A stretch of 64,000 bases of DNA from the NCBI GenBank assembly GCA_016658885.1, contig GCA_016658885.1_4807.1, one strand, 5' to 3'. This DNA is from a phage. Below are positions 5,377 to 27,699 of the stretch, in pieces (position 1 is the first letter of the stretch; every line of letters begins with the position of its first letter). The notes below the pieces were generated by a model. The model saw only the letters and a list, made by a program, of their open reading frames with translations, had not been told where the DNA came from and searched no databases. The position numbers were made by a program, and so were the translations under genes.

Positions 5377-5456
5377 GAGAGGATTTTTAGAGCGTCGTGC
5401 GCGGCGCTTTAATAAAATTCTTTCGCGCCTAGCGCCCTAACAAATAGGAGTTTATT

Positions 5457-6083
5457 ATGGTTAGCTTAAATCGCTTTTCTACTAGCGGCGACGTTATCGC
5501 AACTAAGACCGCCGACCTCGTTGCATTCTATAATGCAAATTCCGGCTCAAAACCGATTAAGAAGTTTGCGGACCGCCGGACCGCCGAGACTCGCGTAATC
5601 GCGTTAATCGAGTCCTTAAACGCGCTCGATGCGCCGTCCAACGAATCGCCCATCCCCGACGCTAAGCCGCGCGAGGAAGTGTCCAGCGATGTAAAAACGC
5701 ATAAGGCGCGTGCGGTCGTTAAAAAGGCTGAGCCTACCCAGGAAGAACTCGACGCGATGACCGACGAAGAATATGAAGCCTTCGTTAAGAGCGGTTTAAA
5801 CGATAGTGCAAATTGCGTAGTGCAAAATGGAACTCCTTCCCATCGCCGTTCGAATAGCGAAGGTATTGCAAAAAGCTGGGATAATAAGGAAGTGGCGCAA
5901 AAGCGTCTCACCCGTAACGGCGTTATGGTCGAGGGTGTAGGCGAGTTCAAATCGGTCCGCGTAGCGTTCGGCGCGCTGGGATTACCGGATAGCAAGCACA
6001 TTCGCTTCCGCATGAAGCTTAAGGAAGCTGGGCGCTTGAACTTCGAGTTCGGCAACAAGTCCTACACCTTCCAGATTATCTAA
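5457..6083 (+). CDS. hypothetical protein (208 aa)
   Basis: ORF track; identical AGGAGTTTATTATG context; carries two ATAGTGCAAAT-type motifs internally. Confidence 0.5.
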   Translation: MVSLNRFSTSGDVIATKTADLVAFYNANSGSKPIKKFADRRTAETRVIALIESLNALDAPSNESPIPDAKPREEVSSDVKTHKARAVVKKAEPTQEELDAMTDEEYEAFVKSGLNDSANCVVQNGTPSHRRSNSEGIAKSWDNKEVAQKRLTRNGVMVEGVGEFKSVRVAFGALGLPDSKHIRFRMKLKEAGRLNFEFGNKSYTFQII

Positions 6084-6089
6084 TCGAAT

Positions 6090-6113
6090 GGCGGCCCTTC
6101 GGGGTCGCTTTTC
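6090..6113 (+). terminator. rho-independent terminator
   Basis: GCGGCCC-ttcg-GGGTCGC hairpin followed by TTTTC. Confidence 0.55.
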
Positions 6114-6511
6114 ATAGTGCAAATTGGTGGCTTATGAATACTCTCATTCTCATCGCTACGTTGTCCATCGGAAGTGGTCGCACCTTATCCCTTTATGATC
6201 ATAGTGCAAATTGCGCTTACCCAACGCGCGTTGCGGCAATAGTTAATAGTGCAAATCGAATGCTATTCGAGACTTGTTGGCGGGTCGATAACGAGAAAGG
6301 TCGGGTAGTCTTAGGTTATAGTGCAAATCTGCTGGTGGAGTCGTTCGATTGGACGGTTGAAGGTCGTAAATTGTTACGGAAAGTGACTAAAAGATGACTT
6401 ATAATAATACACTTTCTAACGCGTTTATGGTTGTAACCTTCCCCATCGTATTACCGATGGCCCTAGAAGTGGAGAAAATGTGTTCTAGGGCCGTTTTATA
6501 GTGCAAATTGG

Positions 6512-10663: not shown

Positions 10664-10955
10664 AATATTTACCTCCAGCCATATTCTCTTTAATTTCTTT
10701 TAATGCCGCGCGACCTGCTTTTGTCATCACCACGGATGAATAGCGCGTCGGGTCTTTCTCCCCTGGCACCGCCCAATCAACAAGGCCCAACCGGAATAAG
10801 ACAGGGATTGACGGCGCATTGATGTCGTGGAACAGTGATGGCCGCTTTTCATAAGCCTTCTTGCGGTCGCCGCGCAGCATGTATGGCGTTCCATCTTCCA
10901 TTCGGTACAATGTTTGAATTTGCGCTAGGCTTAGTCTCATTGTTGTCTTCTCCAA
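10647..10955 (-). CDS. hypothetical protein (102 aa)
   Basis: ORF track. Confidence 0.4.
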   Translation of the reverse strand: MEKTTMRLSLAQIQTLYRMEDGTPYMLRGDRKKAYEKRPSLFHDINAPSIPVLFRLGLVDWAVPGEKDPTRYSSVVMTKAGRAALKEIKENMAGGKYYDIKS

Positions 10956-11122
10956 ACTGCGTGTAATGTTTTCTGGTCGAACTTGGACAGCGTTTCACGC
11001 TCCGATGCTTTCAGGAAGCGTGTGCCAAAGAACAACATTCCTTGCGGCGTTTTAACGAGCGACACGCCTTTGTTACGGTAAAAGCTTACCAAGGCTGATG
11101 CGTTGTGGACTTCGGTACTCAT
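10937..11122 (-). CDS. hypothetical protein (61 aa)
   Basis: ORF track. Confidence 0.35.
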   Translation of the reverse strand: MSTEVHNASALVSFYRNKGVSLVKTPQGMLFFGTRFLKASERETLSKFDQKTLHAVWRRQQ

Positions 11123-11430
11123 AACTTCCCTCCAAATGTTGCAACACGGATGCCGCGACGCTCGAACGTTAACATCGGGTTAAGGCCGTCAGCGCAAGTG
11201 ATAAACAAATCATCAACGATAAGCTCATATCCGCCAACGTAAAGGATGAACGGGTCATCGCTATTCTTTAAAAGCATGATGGCTGCAATTCCATTTTTGT
11301 TATTGTTAAATCCGTGCACCGTCACTTCACCGACGTTCCTTTCTGTGAACGTTTTAATGGCACCACAGTTCACGGCTTCTTGCAAAGCGTTCAAAACCTT
11401 TTTCTTCATCGCTTCGGTACTCATAATCAA
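11119..11430 (-). CDS. hypothetical protein (103 aa)
   Basis: ORF track. Confidence 0.45.
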   Translation of the reverse strand: MIMSTEAMKKKVLNALQEAVNCGAIKTFTERNVGEVTVHGFNNNKNGIAAIMLLKNSDDPFILYVGGYELIVDDLFITCADGLNPMLTFERRGIRVATFGGKL

Positions 11431-11723
11431 ATCTCCTTAAAAACAAATCCGCTGATAATAGATTGATAGTGTGTCACGCCGCGTATTTCTACGACCTTGC
11501 AACGATGCGCCTGGCCCTTGTATTCTATCCACCATACTTCCATATCAGGAAGGTTGTTTGGTTGCGTAATCCATCCGTGAAACAATTCGTATGTCTCACC
11601 GACCTTAAACGGCTTGAGCACGCCGTAAGAATCATTTCTCAATACGCAGACGACATCTTGGCTGTCTTTGTATACAGCATCATGAAACAGCCCGCTTCTG
11701 CCAAACCTTTCGTCGTAACTCAT
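11427..11723 (-). CDS. hypothetical protein (about 98 aa)
   Basis: ORF track trimmed to internal ATG (MSYDERF) preceded by AAGGAG; the upstream extension is translated repeat DNA. Confidence 0.45.
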   Translation of the reverse strand: MSYDERFGRSGLFHDAVYKDSQDVVCVLRNDSYGVLKPFKVGETYELFHGWITQPNNLPDMEVWWIEYKGQAHRCKVVEIRGVTHYQSIISGFVFKEI

Positions 11724-22135: not shown

Positions 22136-22975
22136 ATGGCCGAAGCAATCAAAGTATTATCTAAAGAAGAAAAACAAGCAGCTGCAGCAGAACGTCGTCG
22201 CGTGGCTGAAGAAAAACGTCTGGCTAAAAAGAAAGAAGCCGAAGAAAAACGCCAGAAGCGTGAGCAGGAAAAACAAGCCAAGCGTGAAGAAGCTGCGCTG
22301 AAACGCAAGCAGGCTGCTGATGAGAAGGCTCAGAAGCGTGCTGAAGAAGCAGCTAAGAAAGCTAAAGAGCGTGCAGAAAAGGCTGCTGCTAAGAAAGCAG
22401 AGCGTGAAGCTGCTAAAGCAGCGAAAGAAATCGAAAAGGCAAAGGCTAAAGAAGAAGCCAAGCGCCTGAAAGCTGAACAAGCTGCTGCTAAGAAAGCAGA
22501 GCGTGATCAAGCACGTGCTGCAGCGAAGGCCGAAAAAGAGAAGGCCAAAGAAGAAGCTAAAGCGAAACGCAAGGCAGAGCGTGAAGCTGCTAAGATTGCG
22601 GCTAAAGAAGCTGCAGAACAGCAGAAAGAACAGCGTAAGAAAGAAGCTGAAGAACGTCGCAAAGCCATCGCAGAACGTAAGGCTGCTAAAAAGGCAAACG
22701 GTCAGCGTCGTGCAAAAGCAACCCACTTCATCTACACTGGCAATGGCCTGAGCCAGCCGCAAGAGCATTCCACCCGTGGACGCGTTCTGGCTGCGATCAA
22801 AGAAGGCGAAGTTGGCGTGGCGCAGTCTATCGATGAGCTGGGCGAAAAAGTTAAAGATCAACTGTTTGGCGCTTCCGTTCGCTCCTACCTGAGCAAGCTG
22901 GAAGAGATGGGCCACATCGAGTTTGTCGATGTTGAATCCAACGAAGATGCCGAAGACAGTGATCAAGCGGAATAA
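22136..22975 (+). CDS. Lys/Glu/Ala-rich low-complexity protein with globular C-terminal domain (possible DNA-binding protein)
   Basis: About 190 residues of AEEKR/KAEREAAK-type repeats, then a non-repetitive C-terminus; ATG at 22136 after AAGGAC. Confidence 0.6.
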   Translation: MAEAIKVLSKEEKQAAAAERRRVAEEKRLAKKKEAEEKRQKREQEKQAKREEAALKRKQAADEKAQKRAEEAAKKAKERAEKAAAKKAEREAAKAAKEIEKAKAKEEAKRLKAEQAAAKKAERDQARAAAKAEKEKAKEEAKAKRKAEREAAKIAAKEAAEQQKEQRKKEAEERRKAIAERKAAKKANGQRRAKATHFIYTGNGLSQPQEHSTRGRVLAAIKEGEVGVAQSIDELGEKVKDQLFGASVRSYLSKLEEMGHIEFVDVESNEDAEDSDQAE

Positions 22976-23002
22976 CCTTAGGACGGTTATACAGCGGTAA
23001 TT

Positions 23003-23029
23003 GACCCACACTTGTTGTGGGTCTTTTTT
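23003..23029 (+). terminator. rho-independent terminator
   Basis: GACCCACA-cttg-TTGTGGGTC followed by TTTTTT. Confidence 0.7.
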
Positions 23030-23107
23030 CATCTGTACTAAATAAAATGACTTGTTGCTGTAAAATAATTTAGCTATTATACTTCTCATATCACCCACAA
23101 AGGACAA

Positions 23108-24103
23108 ATGAACATGAAACAACCTGTAATGATTATCGGCGGCGGATTGGCAGGACTTATCACAGCGTGTCACTTCCCGAACTCTATTGTGTACGAAGCA
23201 GGGGAGCGAGCGCAACAGCACAAGGCGCTGCTACGCTTTCGCGGCGAAGAAGTAAGCCGTATTACCGGAATCCCTTTTAAGGCCGTGACAGTTGACAAGG
23301 CTGTGTATTTTCGCGGCAACTACTACCACGACCATTGCCCAATCAACCTTGCCAATATGTATTCCATGAAGGTCACCAATCAATTTGGCAGCCGTTCAAT
23401 CATGAAGCTTAAGACTGCAACGCGTTATATTGCGCCTGACGACTTTTATGATCAGCTTGTCGACAAACTGGGTGACCGCATATTCTTTAATACTCCGGTC
23501 GATACTCTTTGCGGCTATAGCGAGACGCCAATCATCAACACGTCGCCGCTGCCAGTCATGATGAAGCTGGCTGGTATTGATCAGAATCTTGACTTTTCAT
23601 TCGATAAAGCAAACATTCGCGTTTACCGCTTTAAGATTAAACGTAAGTGTGAACTTTATCAAACCATTTACTTTCCTGACTACTCCGTCAGAACTTACCG
23701 CGCTTCAATCACTGGCGACACATTGATCATTGAAACAATTCCTTTGGTTAGCGTAAGTGAAGCCGCAGTTGAAGCCGCTGGCGGCATTACTCGTTACCGT
23801 GACATTAAGTTGCGTGCAGAAGTTGACGAAGTGTTGACGGCCTTTGGTCTATCATGGAGTGACATCGCTCTCGAAGAAGTTGAGAAGGTCGACCAGAAGT
23901 ATGGCAAGATTGTCGACATTCCGAAAGACTTGCGACACGCTCTACTCCTACAACTTACCATGGATTTGAACGTGTTTAGTGTCGGTCGCTTTGCTACCTG
24001 GCGAAACATTTTGCTTGATGACGTTGCTCATGACCTTGTTGAAGTTGAAAAACTCATCAAAGCAAATAACTATCAAAAATTTGCTTATATTGCTAATAAA
24101 TAA
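23108..24103 (+). CDS. FAD/NAD(P)-binding Rossmann-fold oxidoreductase (possibly UDP-galactopyranose-mutase-like)
   Basis: N-terminal VMIIGGGLAGLITA dinucleotide-binding motif; C-terminal FSVGRFATWRNILLDDV resembles the UGM C-terminal GRLAEYKY segment (from memory). Confidence 0.5.
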   Translation: MNMKQPVMIIGGGLAGLITACHFPNSIVYEAGERAQQHKALLRFRGEEVSRITGIPFKAVTVDKAVYFRGNYYHDHCPINLANMYSMKVTNQFGSRSIMKLKTATRYIAPDDFYDQLVDKLGDRIFFNTPVDTLCGYSETPIINTSPLPVMMKLAGIDQNLDFSFDKANIRVYRFKIKRKCELYQTIYFPDYSVRTYRASITGDTLIIETIPLVSVSEAAVEAAGGITRYRDIKLRAEVDEVLTAFGLSWSDIALEEVEKVDQKYGKIVDIPKDLRHALLLQLTMDLNVFSVGRFATWRNILLDDVAHDLVEVEKLIKANNYQKFAYIANK

Positions 24104-24169
24104 TTTGCTTTCTGCTTCAATGGGCGTATACTTTAATCATTGAAGCAGAACTCATAAGAGGAAACGAAA

Positions 24170-24616
24170 ATGAAACGCATCACTGGAATCGCTCTTGCCG
24201 CAACTGCTATTCTCGGCACCATGTATATGGAAGCGACTGAAGCCGCTGTCCGTACTTCCGATTCAATCGCCGTGTATGATTGCGAAGCGATGGACGGTAA
24301 AACCGCAGCAACCACTGGCGCAACTATCACGGCTTACATCGGCGTGAACGAGCAAGAAGGTCTGAATATTCAGATTCAAGGATTCACAGGGAAAGGTGCC
24401 AACCGTACTCCGTGGATGCAGCGTTTCACTTTCGTTCAGCCTCGTTCAACTGGCGGCTTTATCAACTTGATTGGTGAAAACCGTTCTGGTGCAGAAATCT
24501 TTACATCAATGAGTTCTAATAATGAACCAAAGAAAAGTTTTCAGTTGCTTTATAACGCACAATTCGTTTATCATTGCACCTTCTCTGGTGATCAGCAACT
24601 AGTGAATTACCGTTAA
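24170..24616 (+). CDS. secreted/periplasmic protein (148 aa)
   Basis: N-terminal signal-peptide-like MKRITGIALAATAILGTMYMEATEAA. Confidence 0.5.
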   Translation: MKRITGIALAATAILGTMYMEATEAAVRTSDSIAVYDCEAMDGKTAATTGATITAYIGVNEQEGLNIQIQGFTGKGANRTPWMQRFTFVQPRSTGGFINLIGENRSGAEIFTSMSSNNEPKKSFQLLYNAQFVYHCTFSGDQQLVNYR

Positions 24617-24629
24617 TAGGATAATTAAA

Positions 24630-25433
24630 ATGAAAGTTGAATTAATTCGATACACCCAAGATGCACTTGACCTTTTGCTGGAAACAAAGAACACGCGCAT
24701 GACTGGTAAGCCCGTCTCTGAGATGACAGAATCAGAGAAGCAAGAGCACTGGCGCTATATGCTTGACACCATCAAGTCACCTTTTGACTTTGTGGACTAT
24801 ATCTTTGATATCACTGATGTATCAAAGAACATGACCCATCAGATGGTACGCACACGCACAGGCGCATATCAAGAACGCACCAGCCGCGCGCAGGAGTCAT
24901 CTGCTTTTGATGCGATTCGTCCGAAAGCGTTTGAGTATGACGACCCTGACAGGGTTATCGGCGAGCGAATCGACGAGCAGCGTTTGAAGTTGGCTAACAC
25001 ATGGGACGACGCCATGGCGACCATTGACGCCCTATACCAAGAACTTCGCGCGGCTGGCGCAGAGATTCAAGATGCACGTGCCGTTTTGCCTTCTAATATG
25101 CAAACTCATATCATGGCAAAGTTCAACTTGCGCACGCTGCAACAGATGGCGTCAAACCGCTTGTGCACGCGCACACAAGGCGAGTATCAAGAAGTATTTC
25201 GCGCAATGGTTGCGGAAGTCCTCAAGGTGCACCCGTGGGCTAATCCTTTACTACAGCCGCAATGCATCGGTATGGGTAAATGCGCGTTTCCTCGTCACGG
25301 CAAAGCCCATTGCCCTTGGTATCGTGATTGGATGGATACTACGGCACAGCAAGAAGAGTTGCGCATCCAGTTTTGGAATGCGATGCCAATCACCAACAAT
25401 CCAGTTGCTAAAGATGGAGTATCAAAAGGATGA
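24630..25433 (+). CDS. ThyX-family (flavin-dependent thymidylate synthase-like) protein with variant active-site motif
   Basis: MKVELIRYT start; VRTRTGAYQERTSR aligns with ThyX RHRxxSYxExSxRY; ARAVLPSNMQT...NLRTLQQMASNR...EYQ parallels the ThyX C-terminal block. Confidence 0.65.
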   Translation: MKVELIRYTQDALDLLLETKNTRMTGKPVSEMTESEKQEHWRYMLDTIKSPFDFVDYIFDITDVSKNMTHQMVRTRTGAYQERTSRAQESSAFDAIRPKAFEYDDPDRVIGERIDEQRLKLANTWDDAMATIDALYQELRAAGAEIQDARAVLPSNMQTHIMAKFNLRTLQQMASNRLCTRTQGEYQEVFRAMVAEVLKVHPWANPLLQPQCIGMGKCAFPRHGKAHCPWYRDWMDTTAQQEELRIQFWNAMPITNNPVAKDGVSKG

Positions 25434-26302
25434 GCATTAAAAACAGCGAAATCTTAAACGTATTCGACCTTGACGGAACGCTGTTTGATGATCGTTGGCG
25501 CTTAGACCGCATTAAGGTGGCAGGTCCGTTGTCAGACTATGATGATTATCACAGCGGTATTGGTTATGATCAGTTCTATCCTCACATTGCATCAGCAGTA
25601 GAGTCGGCATCTCTTCGCGGTGAGGCGGTTGAATATTGGACTGCAAGGCCAGAAAAATACAGACAAGTGACTTTTGAACGTCTGGACAATGTTTTTCCTT
25701 TTGATGAATTTACAATCAAGATGAGAGACTATGGCGACAAACGTACATCAACTATTATGAAATCTGCATGGCTATCGCACGCTTTGCGGCACGGCGATTA
25801 TCGAATCATCAATGTATTCGACGACCGACAAGACGTACTCGCGCGGATGCAAGATGAAGCATTGTATTATAATTCCGTTGCTCAAAATAAAATCGCTTTT
25901 ACATTTAATCTTTGCAAGGCAGGTGAAGTGGTGCAACAATTAGCAATTGATCCAAGCGCAACAGGGCAAGAAGAGACTAAGGCTGTGGAAGTTGAACAAT
26001 CTCCGGCAACTGCCGCCGATATTCTTGATGCAATGGCAGCAACCTTCCGTGAGCGCAACGCTGTCTATGGCGATAACGCTGTGATGGTAGGTCAGGTTAT
26101 GCAAGTGCTTTTCCCTAATGGCGTGACGTTGAAAACGCCGGAAGACTACCACATGTGGCATCTGTTCGAGCTTAAGATTGTCAAGCTTACACGCTTCGCA
26201 ATCAGCGGCCTGAAGCACGAAGACTCTATACACGATGATGGTGTTTACAGCGCCATGTGTGAACGTCTTGTTAACACCCATAATATTAATTTCAATAAAT
26301 AG
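25430..26302 (+). CDS. HAD-superfamily phosphatase fused to an uncharacterised C-terminal domain
   Basis: Motif I VFDLDGTLFDD, later VFDDRQD; C-terminal 110 aa (AADILDAMAATFRERNAVYGDN...) unassigned. Confidence 0.55.
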   Translation: MSIKNSEILNVFDLDGTLFDDRWRLDRIKVAGPLSDYDDYHSGIGYDQFYPHIASAVESASLRGEAVEYWTARPEKYRQVTFERLDNVFPFDEFTIKMRDYGDKRTSTIMKSAWLSHALRHGDYRIINVFDDRQDVLARMQDEALYYNSVAQNKIAFTFNLCKAGEVVQQLAIDPSATGQEETKAVEVEQSPATAADILDAMAATFRERNAVYGDNAVMVGQVMQVLFPNGVTLKTPEDYHMWHLFELKIVKLTRFAISGLKHEDSIHDDGVYSAMCERLVNTHNINFNK

Positions 26303-26367: not shown

Positions 26368-27051
26368 ATGAAAAAAGTAATTGTTGTAACTGGCTGCAAT
26401 TCCGGTCTTGGTAAATCCATTTTTGACACCCTTGGCGCTTACGGTCATGAAGTTGTCGGTATTGATTTGGAGAACGGCTATGACATCCGTAACGCGAAAC
26501 AGATGAAAGAGCTTCTCTCTCAATACGACGTAGAAGGCTTGATCAACTGCGCTGGCGTCAACTCCAACAACTGGTTCGAAGATGTTAACTACGAAGAGTT
26601 CAATCGCGTTATGCACACCAACGCCTTCTCTTTCGTCAACACGACTCAGGCCGCGCTGAAAAGTCTTATTGACAACAAAGGTTTTGTGATCAACATCGTT
26701 TCCAACGCTGCGCATATTCCTATGACGTCCAGCTTGTGTTATAATGCTTCCAAGGCTGCTGCGCTCATGATTAGCAAGCAGATGGCTCACGAGCTTACGC
26801 CTAAATACGGGATCACGGTATTCTCTATTAGTCCTAACAAGCTACGTGGTACTGGCATGTCCAAACAGATTGAAGATGCTGTTTGCGCGACTCGCGGCTG
26901 GACTCCTGAATACGCTGCTGAATACCAGAAAAAGGCACTGATGAATGGATTGGAGACTGAGCCGCAAGTAATTGCTGACTTCATTCGCCATATCTTAATT
27001 ACGGGCGCATGGCGCTTTATGTCTGGTACTGATATTCCATTCGGTAAATAA
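26368..27051 (+). CDS. short-chain dehydrogenase/reductase (SDR)
   Basis: VVTGCNSGLGKS cofactor motif, NCAG, catalytic YNASK. Confidence 0.75.
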   Translation: MKKVIVVTGCNSGLGKSIFDTLGAYGHEVVGIDLENGYDIRNAKQMKELLSQYDVEGLINCAGVNSNNWFEDVNYEEFNRVMHTNAFSFVNTTQAALKSLIDNKGFVINIVSNAAHIPMTSSLCYNASKAAALMISKQMAHELTPKYGITVFSISPNKLRGTGMSKQIEDAVCATRGWTPEYAAEYQKKALMNGLETEPQVIADFIRHILITGAWRFMSGTDIPFGK

Positions 27052-27147: not shown

Positions 27148-27699
27148 ATGCCACATTTTAAAATTGAACAAATCGCCCTGTCAATTCCAGGTGCTCAGCG
27201 CGCACAGAATTTCCTGGCTAAAATCGGCCTGACAGAATGGTTCCATGATCACGTTGTTGCTACTGGTCGCGTATTTGAAGCTGATGTCTTTAAGGGTCAG
27301 CGCGGCGATTGCACCAACGAAGCTGACTTGCGCTTCAACTATCAGGCTGGCAACGGCACCGATGGCGGCGCTGGTAAGCCTCTTGAGCTTGAAATTCTTG
27401 ACTATACAAAAGGTTGCAACTGGATTCACGAAAACATCGAATACATCGATGCGCACGACAATCAGGTTAGCCATCTTGGTATGCACGTGACTGCCGCTGA
27501 ACTTGCTGAATGGCGCAAGTTCTTTAAAGAAGAAGGCATTCAGGTTGCGCAGGAAGTTGTGACCGACTCTCACACCAACCCAAACATTGCTGGTCAGCGT
27601 CGTTACAACTATGTAATCTTTGATACTCGTGAAATCATCGGTGTCGACCTTAAATTCATCGTACGGTTGAATCAAGACGGTACTCCGTACACTGTATAA
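27148..27699 (+). CDS. hypothetical protein, possibly glyoxalase/VOC-like fold
   Basis: ORF track; weak beta-alpha-beta pattern only; tentative. Confidence 0.35.
   Translation: MPHFKIEQIALSIPGAQRAQNFLAKIGLTEWFHDHVVATGRVFEADVFKGQRGDCTNEADLRFNYQAGNGTDGGAGKPLELEILDYTKGCNWIHENIEYIDAHDNQVSHLGMHVTAAELAEWRKFFKEEGIQVAQEVVTDSHTNPNIAGQRRYNYVIFDTREIIGVDLKFIVRLNQDGTPYTV

Follow-up and report, generated by a model that had tools for sequence, protein, structure and literature searches.

Results

A ThyX-fold homologue in a Wifcevirus-type phage

The window analyzed here is a 64,000-nt stretch of phage DNA (GenBank assembly GCA_016658885.1, contig GCA_016658885.1_4807.1), and our subject is a gene on its + strand, at positions 24630..25433, that encodes a 267-aa variant of the flavin-dependent thymidylate synthase (FDTS) ThyX. 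The window belongs to a Wifcevirus-type E. coli myophage. Over a 3-kb region it shares 93-97% identity with 29 phage records, and the ThyX variant itself is 99% identical to ECML-117 gp78. The protein comprises a Thy1 core (residues 1-203) and a conserved C-terminal extension (residues 204-267). Its gene lies in a cassette (window positions 23108-26302) in which a flavoprotein of family phrog_4828, the variant ThyX, a HAD_PNKP phosphatase, and a domain of ~85 aa follow one another.

An initial annotation, made from the DNA letters alone, had proposed a ThyX homologue at this position, and the open reading frame (ORF) proved exact. The protein matched Pfam Thy1 (PF02511) from end to end (profile positions 2-191 of 191) with an E value of 6e-30 and a score of 104.9 bits against a cutoff of 24.8, and it falls in PHROG 85, "thymidylate synthase". 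An AlphaFold2 monomer model built with 39 homologues (predicted local distance difference test score, 83; predicted template modeling score, 0.75) was searched with Foldseek, and the best matches were crystal structures of Thermotoga maritima ThyX (E about 1e-10; target-normalized template modeling score, 0.73). By sequence and predicted structure, the gene is a full-length ThyX-fold homologue. Every public phage record found already labels it "thymidylate synthase", and it is the sole thymidylate-synthase-like gene annotated in one complete Wifcevirus genome. Known ThyX enzymes are homotetramers with active sites at the subunit interfaces, and formation of deoxythymidine monophosphate (dTMP) by these enzymes needs nicotinamide adenine dinucleotide phosphate in its reduced form (NADPH) and methylenetetrahydrofolate (CH2-THF).

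Active-site residues on the cofactor side are replaced

The ThyX signature of the variant, QMVRTRTGAYQERTSRA (residues 71-87; 24840..24890, + strand), has R74-T75-R76 for RHR and Thr84 for Ser88 of T. maritima (Tm) ThyX; Arg86 is kept, and Ala87 takes the place of Tyr91. The signature RHRxxxxxxxS is not matched, as the query reads R74-T75-R76-x7-T84, with both arginines retained and with Thr for both His and Ser. Thr75 is encoded by ACA (24852-24854) and Ala87 by GCG (24888-24890). A second altered segment, IKSPFDF (residues 48-54; 24771..24791, + strand), carries Ile48 for Tm His53 and Phe54 for Tm His59, and keeps Ser50 (Tm Thr55) and Asp53 (Tm Glu58). The C-terminal ARxVLP block, which had also been reported in the initial annotation, is present as DARAVLPSN (residues 148-156).

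The residue register was derived from phmmer searches against the ThyX chains of the PDB, from a clade profile aligned to PDB chains of T. maritima, M. tuberculosis, and 6j61, from a MAFFT alignment of 150 family representatives with the T. maritima sequence, from pairwise local alignment, and from Foldseek. The T. maritima sequence used in the MAFFT alignment agrees with the PDB alignments, and its landmarks (H53, R78, H79, R80, S88, R90, Y91, R147, R174, and H178) were verified. All alignments concurred that R74-T75-R76 corresponds to Tm R78-H79-R80, T84 to S88, R86 to R90, and A87 to Y91. The earlier observation of Thr for the motif His and Ala for the terminal Tyr was therefore recovered in the same register by sequence, profile, and structure alignments. 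A histidine in an alternative register was ruled out by the Pfam, phmmer, profile-versus-PDB, MAFFT, and pairwise alignments, and the profile alignment placed no conserved His elsewhere in register, so the observation stands.

Four residues are thus lost together: Tm His53 (Ile48), His59 (Phe54), His79 (Thr75), and Tyr91 (Ala87). The residues that bind or activate deoxyuridine monophosphate (dUMP), Tm Q75, R78, R80, R90, R147, and R174, are all present as Q71, R74, R76, R86, R150, and R177. R165 (query R168) is likewise retained, and the arginines that contact dUMP or flavin adenine dinucleotide (FAD), along with Q71, S50, and D53, are conserved in the variant and canonical classes alike. Among the FAD contacts (Tm T55, E58, R78, H79, R80, N163, and R165), only H79 is lost, with S50, D53, R74, R76, N166, and R168 kept; FAD binding by the variant is likely on this pattern.

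In canonical ThyX, the RHR motif forms hydrogen bonds with the phosphates and ribityl chain of FAD (PMC6514825). His53 packs in a stack against either the reduced flavin or the pterin of folate and, through a hydrogen bond to Tyr91, serves as a gate (PMC11940539), and Tyr91 is the proposed general acid (PMC8316439). Both the general acid and the stacking and gating residue are absent from the query, which has Ala87 and Ile48 at these positions. Since the lost residues are of the FAD-phosphate, flavin- or folate-stacking, and general-acid types while the arginines are kept, the pattern points to remodeling on the flavin si-face, on the side of folate, NADPH, and the acid catalyst, and not in the nucleotide pocket. 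The difference from textbook ThyX would then sit on the side of the cofactor, the one-carbon (C1) donor, and the reductant. The initial annotation had suggested changed substrate or product specificity. A changed nucleotide substrate finds no support, because the dUMP-binding and -activating residues are invariant or nearly so and Ser88 is replaced conservatively by Thr; a changed product is possible, and the broader idea of a ThyX-fold protein with a conserved, non-accidental motif change that works unlike the textbook enzyme is probably right. The losses at positions 48 and 54, the four cysteines with the C-terminal extension, and the linked flavoprotein gene had escaped the initial annotation.

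The substitutions mark a large class of phage proteins

The RTR triplet and the terminal R-A pair were invariant in all 120 best homologues from a collection of 5.8 billion proteins, down to 53% identity, and these include proteins of Serratia, Erwinia, Pantoea, and Burkholderia phages. The PB1-like Pseudomonas phages, which are used therapeutically, carry a homologue ~50% identical to the query. An RTR-type substitution was the dominant state in 152 viral loci. The motif substitution is far beyond chance.

HMMER scanning of 1.84 billion cluster representatives yielded 1,666 relatives, the best 150 of which were analyzed. The states of Tm His53, His59, His79, and Tyr91 could be compared in 142 sequences: 97 retained none of the four, 13 retained all four, 23 had His79 alone, and 9 were mixed. 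Position 48 was Ile, Leu, or Val in 121 of the 142, and His in all canonical members. RTR was rejected as the defining feature, as two partner-linked loci (L011 and L077) keep RHR; the class would be better defined by I/L/V48, F54, and a non-Tyr residue at position 87.

Among 185,579 species-representative cellular genomes, the close clade was represented by a single contig of 567 bp. This contig (NZ_JPLE01000177.1; L099), assigned to Xanthomonas pisi DSM 18956, codes for a segment 100% identical to residues 177-267 of the phage protein and is most likely Wifcevirus DNA contamination. Judged from these collections, variant ThyX is a large phage-only subclass.

In two metagenomic relatives (P0158 and P0171), inteins interrupt the ThyX core around residues 71-76, at the RxR motif or immediately ahead of it. 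Inteins at a motif are typical of functionally important active sites. A Rosetta-stone fusion of ThyX with its partner flavoprotein was sought among the representatives, and none was present; the long ones carry inteins or unrelated extensions. Locus L033 has a second, degenerate ThyX-like ORF (1474-2088; R76 replaced by Ala, with Ile75 and Tyr87) a few kilobases upstream of a normal variant ThyX.

An upstream flavoprotein gene is linked to the variant class

The partner gene (23108..24103, + strand; phrog_4828) encodes a predicted FAD flavoprotein of 331 aa with GxGxxG at residues 11-16, Glu30, and a C-terminal GRFATW...LLDD sequence. Its N-terminus holds the dinucleotide-binding motif IIGGGLAGL, and the combination of an N-terminal GxGxxG with an acidic residue after beta-2 is that of the two-domain FAD-binding fold. 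The partner is predicted to be a flavoprotein of the UDP-galactopyranose mutase/protoporphyrinogen oxidase (UGM/PPO) fold. It matched no Pfam or NCBIfam family, and phrog_4828 is labeled "unknown function". The family of such partners has ~1,900 members, and the contigs that carry them match in size those with ThyX homologues.

Of 80 IMG/VR loci found via ThyX, 79 had the partner upstream of ThyX and on the same strand, as located with a hidden Markov model (HMM) of the partner; in the exception, the contig extends only 1.5 kb upstream. Conversely, ThyX was present in 72 of 77 loci found via the partner, and the contigs of the other five end 170-1,850 nt past it. In all 72 testable partner-found loci, ThyX belonged to the variant class (I48/F54/[T,S,N]75/[A,V]87). 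The partner was absent within 5-8 kb of all seven ThyX genes of other classes, a small control set (n = 7), whose residues at query positions 54/75/87 were H/H/Y, H/H/F, A/Q/F, or F/Q/F. Three of these seven adjoin the gene for DNA polymerase III alpha (Pol III alpha), which argues that the partner is not a mere passenger of that replication module.

Of 72 distinct loci, 32 have a partner stop codon that runs into the ThyX start or directly meets it, with 4 nt as the most frequent overlap; the two genes are more than 1 kb apart in 16 of the 72, and in the window an ORF lies between them. In a Pam3-like metagenomic phage with a ThyX 39% identical to the query, the order is partner (31% identical, E = 5e-32), ThyX, and HAD_PNKP. 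This order recurs in another metagenomic lineage, in Pbunavirus LMA2, in L011 with its RHR-keeping ThyX, and in Rhizobium phage RHph_Y65 (206 kb; L093), where the partner-ThyX cluster includes genes for dUTPase and ribonucleotide reductase. The co-occurrence is thus mutual and class-specific, and it extends to about 30-40% identity over very different phage types.

Two annotations in RHph_Y65 are probably mistaken. The product of gp191 (5455-6417), "polysaccharide deacetylase", is a partner homologue (HMM E = 1e-89), and that of gp205 (10751-11470), "phosphoheptose isomerase", is matched by the HMM built for the C-terminal domain of the HAD protein (E = 6e-27).

Four cysteines and the C-terminal extension

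The close clade shares four invariant cysteines, C179 (25164-66), C212 (25263-65), C218 (25281-83), and C228 (25311-13), within 25164..25313 on the + strand; the C-terminal extension of 64 residues is conserved as well. C179 lies two residues past the dUMP-activating R177. Across 135 representatives, the four-cysteine set was nearly all-or-none, with only a few partial cases, which suggests that the four act together, in the simplest case as a metal site. In the query, the four cysteines would tie the R177/R181 helix to the C-terminal extension as a putative metal-binding site.

The same four cysteines occur together with a canonical or near-canonical motif in ThyX proteins of an Omnitrophota metagenome-assembled genome (MAG; MFA6320333.1), a Methanobacteriota MAG (RLG72574.1), and Acidianus tailed spindle virus (gp22), and they are missing from many variant members. 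The possibility that they form part of the motif innovation was therefore rejected. They may instead constitute a structural metal site that was inherited from an older lineage of ThyX and has nothing to do with the motif change. Immediately downstream of the Omnitrophota four-cysteine gene come NrdD and NrdG, the genes for the anaerobic ribonucleotide reductase, so that this ThyX has a true setting of deoxynucleotide synthesis. No description of a metal-binding ThyX, with either an iron-sulfur cluster or zinc, was found in the literature searched.

Neighboring genes and the cassette

Downstream of ThyX, a gene at 25430..26302 (+ strand; PF25109, phrog_4889) encodes a HAD_PNKP-type phosphatase (residues 1-180) and the ~85-aa domain (residues 206-290), and its start and the stop of ThyX share 4 nt. 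HAD_PNKP and the ~85-aa domain follow ThyX in about 75 of the 80 loci; the two are fused in the window and are separate ORFs in L005. The order flavoprotein, variant ThyX, phosphatase, and ~85-aa domain is kept across phages whose ThyX proteins are only 35-40% identical, inside replication modules of the Pol III alpha type (the window; L004, L005, L009, L011, L013-L093, and L100-L176). Around the module, the order is Dda-like helicase, module, exonuclease, Pol III alpha, and helicases.

The ORF between the partner and ThyX (24170..24616, + strand) encodes 148 aa with a hydrophobic, signal-like N-terminus. Among the fetched loci, it is present only in those of Wifcevirus (L001 and L002), and it probably stands outside the module. 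In Wifcevirus, the cassette is followed by a gene for a FabG-like short-chain dehydrogenase (26368-27051; Pfam adh_short, E = 1e-31) and by a 183-aa ORF (27148-27699) with only a faint glyoxalase-like match. Pbunavirus LMA2 lacks both genes between its HAD/PNKP and exonuclease genes, and Mycobacterium phage Prager (L095) has an oxidoreductase/FabG-like pair near ThyX. No Pfam, NCBIfam, or PDB identity was obtained for the 148-aa ORF, the 183-aa ORF, or the C-terminal domain of the HAD protein. On the - strand, a 354-aa ORF (22157-23221) of low complexity, rich in Phe, Leu, and Ser, lies opposite a gene annotated as 'TolA protein'; it is almost certainly a mirror-frame artifact of this repetitive, Lys/Glu-rich + strand gene.

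Restriction sites in the window

Many 6-bp palindromes are absent from the 64-kb window, including GGATCC (BamHI, 13 expected), CCGCGG (SacII, 10 expected), CGGCCG, CTCGAG, GAGCTC, GCCGGC, and others. GATC is depleted 2.4-fold (102 sites versus 247 expected). AAGCTT (HindIII) is over-represented about 3-fold (58 versus 18). Site avoidance as the whole explanation of resistance to restriction-modification was partly supported: many palindromes are absent, but 10 EcoRI, 6 EcoRV, and 4 EcoKI sites occur.

Discussion

From the fold, register, residue states, conservation, and gene linkage observed here, we infer dUMP as the probable substrate, dTMP as the probable product, a role for the partner, and, for the four cysteines, metal binding. 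The reading that we favor, with confidence somewhat above the midpoint, is that the variant is a ThyX-fold, flavin-dependent dUMP C5-methylene transferase that acts as a two-component system with the partner and most likely still makes dTMP. The ThyX subunit would retain binding of dUMP and FAD and methylene transfer at the flavin N5. It would have given up the acid/base and stacking residues of the si-face, that is, of the folate/NADPH side (His53, His59, usually His79, and Tyr91), and the lost part of the catalytic cycle would have been passed to the dedicated upstream UGM/PPO-like FAD flavoprotein. The partner may supply ThyX with reducing equivalents or with a reduced or C1-loaded flavin. 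Production of dTMP is favored because the module lies in a replication region and the gene is the sole thymidylate-synthase-like one.

Several points weigh against this two-component reading. The variant scored 81.4 bits against the thyX equivalog model of NCBIfam (TIGR02170), under the cutoff of 87.9; among its relatives, the canonical four-cysteine P0250 scored 205.8, and the variants P0149 and P0134 scored 93.8 and 98.5. Engineered Y91A ThyX of T. maritima is impaired more than 100-fold (PMC8316439), and ordinary chemistry in the variant is therefore not guaranteed. Class specificity of the linkage draws on the small control set of seven genes, and the linkage itself could partly reflect common descent of one replication module; as all variants may stem from one module, the linked loci are phylogenetically non-independent. 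The role given to the partner is a guess, because its closest folds (UGM, PPO, and amine oxidases) are not classical flavin reductases. Finally, no biochemistry or description of the subclass was found in the full-text literature, in which few subscription journals were covered.

The protein could instead be a stand-alone, ordinary thymidylate synthase in which the residue changes are tolerated and compensated drift and the upstream flavoprotein is a syntenic neighbor with an unrelated job. The substrate and FAD arginines are intact and the phage records uniformly say thymidylate synthase, as expected for an ordinary enzyme. His53 is not universal either, as the 6j61 chain has Ser at this position and Met at that of Tm His59; and the partner is distant from ThyX in 16 of 72 loci, with an intervening ORF in the window. 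However, the co-occurrence is mutual and class-specific, the stop and start codons frequently overlap, and four functionally linked residues, including one whose replacement is strongly deleterious in the model enzyme, were lost jointly. We regard an ordinary enzyme as unlikely, though it keeps an appreciable share of our belief. If, at the other extreme, the ThyX fold were catalytically dead and served as a nucleotide- or flavin-binding regulator or as a replisome scaffold, the loss of residues described as strictly conserved and critical and the score below the equivalog cutoff would be accounted for. Hundreds of diverged sequences nevertheless show no variation in the dUMP-activating arginines, the FAD contacts, or the ARxVLP block. 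Such invariance is a pattern of active-site conservation that contradicts a dead enzyme, and inteins target the motif; we consider this very improbable indeed.

A change of product has also to be weighed. ThyX, the flavoprotein, and the HAD phosphatase might be neofunctionalized to make another C5-substituted pyrimidine that would enter the phage DNA and protect it from restriction, for example, 5-hydroxymethyl-dUMP by hydration of the exocyclic methylene intermediate. The general acid and the gating residues of the methylation cycle are gone, precedents exist in the phage dUMP hydroxymethylases of the ThyA family and in PolB, a paralogue of ThyX, and base-replacement phages typically have a phosphatase and MazG-like enzymes. 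The presence of EcoRI, EcoRV, and EcoKI sites in the window means that site absence is not the full answer to restriction resistance. By contrast, no known hypermodification kinase, transferase, or glycosylase is annotated in the Wifcevirus genome, and the avoidance of palindromes together with the depletion of GATC suggests DNA that is exposed to restriction, which argues against a blanket base substitution. Wifcevirus is also very sensitive to EcoP1_I. DNA of the PB1-like phage JG024 is cut near the predicted SacII pattern, although a SacII site contains no T. To our knowledge, such phages are routinely sequenced without reported anomalies, and the RHph_Y65 module, with its dUTPase and ribonucleotide reductase, resembles an ordinary pathway to deoxythymidine triphosphate. 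A neofunctionalized product is, on balance, quite unlikely. We are more doubtful still of the specific proposal that the cassette is a flavin-based pathway to a non-thymine C5-modified deoxyuridylate, or one that takes its C1 unit from a non-folate donor, and so confers the restriction resistance of Wifcevirus. If this were true, DNA chemistry would account for the unexplained broad restriction resistance of Wifcevirus and perhaps for that of its Pbunavirus relatives.

ThyX serves both as a target for antibiotics and as a model of flavin-mediated methylene transfer, and in papers on its mechanism the RHR motif, Tyr91, Ser88, and His53 count as conserved, critical features. The clade described here is very large, with members in hundreds of metagenomic phages as well as in the therapeutic PB1-like Pseudomonas phages. 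Its proteins are natural carriers of "Y91A" and "H53I", and as a natural experiment it could show which parts of the ThyX cycle can be dispensed with or transferred. The linkage also gives a function-related context to phrog_4828 and its ~1,900 unannotated sequences. A subclass without His53, His59, (His79), and Tyr91, its linkage to a UGM/PPO-like flavoprotein, and the four-cysteine site are apparently new, as we did not find them described in the full-text literature searched.

Comparison with known systems

Canonical ThyX/FDTS enzymes (T. maritima TM0449, M. tuberculosis Rv2754c, and PBCV-1 A674R) share with the query the fold, the ARxVLP block, a context of replication or deoxynucleotide genes, and residues Q75, R78, R80, R90, R147, N163, R165, and R174. 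The query differs in having Ile for His53, Phe for His59, Thr for His79, Thr for Ser88, Ala for Tyr91, Gln for Glu144, and Arg for His178. It is also unlike them in its 64-aa C-terminal extension with four cysteines, its score below the TIGR02170 cutoff, and the partner flavoprotein alongside. The canonical-motif four-cysteine proteins (MFA6320333.1, RLG72574.1, and Acidianus gp22) share C179, C212, C218, C228, and the extension with the query, but keep His53, His59, His79, and Tyr91 (Phe in place of Tyr91 in the Acidianus virus) and have no partner nearby.

The partner is shorter than UGM, PPO, and flavin amine oxidases (331 aa versus 365-510 aa) and is 9-17% identical to them. The ThyA-family dUMP hydroxymethylases of phages SPO1, M6, and ViI are likewise phage homologues of thymidylate synthase, which serve to make a modified, DNA-protecting pyrimidine. 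The likeness is a functional analogy only, since these enzymes have the ThyA fold, which is unrelated to ThyX, and their phages possess 5-HMUDK kinases and transferases for which no counterpart is annotated here. PolB, a ThyX paralogue of polyoxin biosynthesis that methylates UMP or dUMP at C5, is a precedent for the ThyX fold at a new task with relaxed or altered specificity. PDB entry 4p5a, which we take to be PolB, is a distant relative of the query clade (clade profile E = 5e-4). PolB is not the closest relative of the query, has no known partner flavoprotein, and comes from a Streptomyces antibiotic cluster, whereas the variant ThyX is encoded in a phage replication module.

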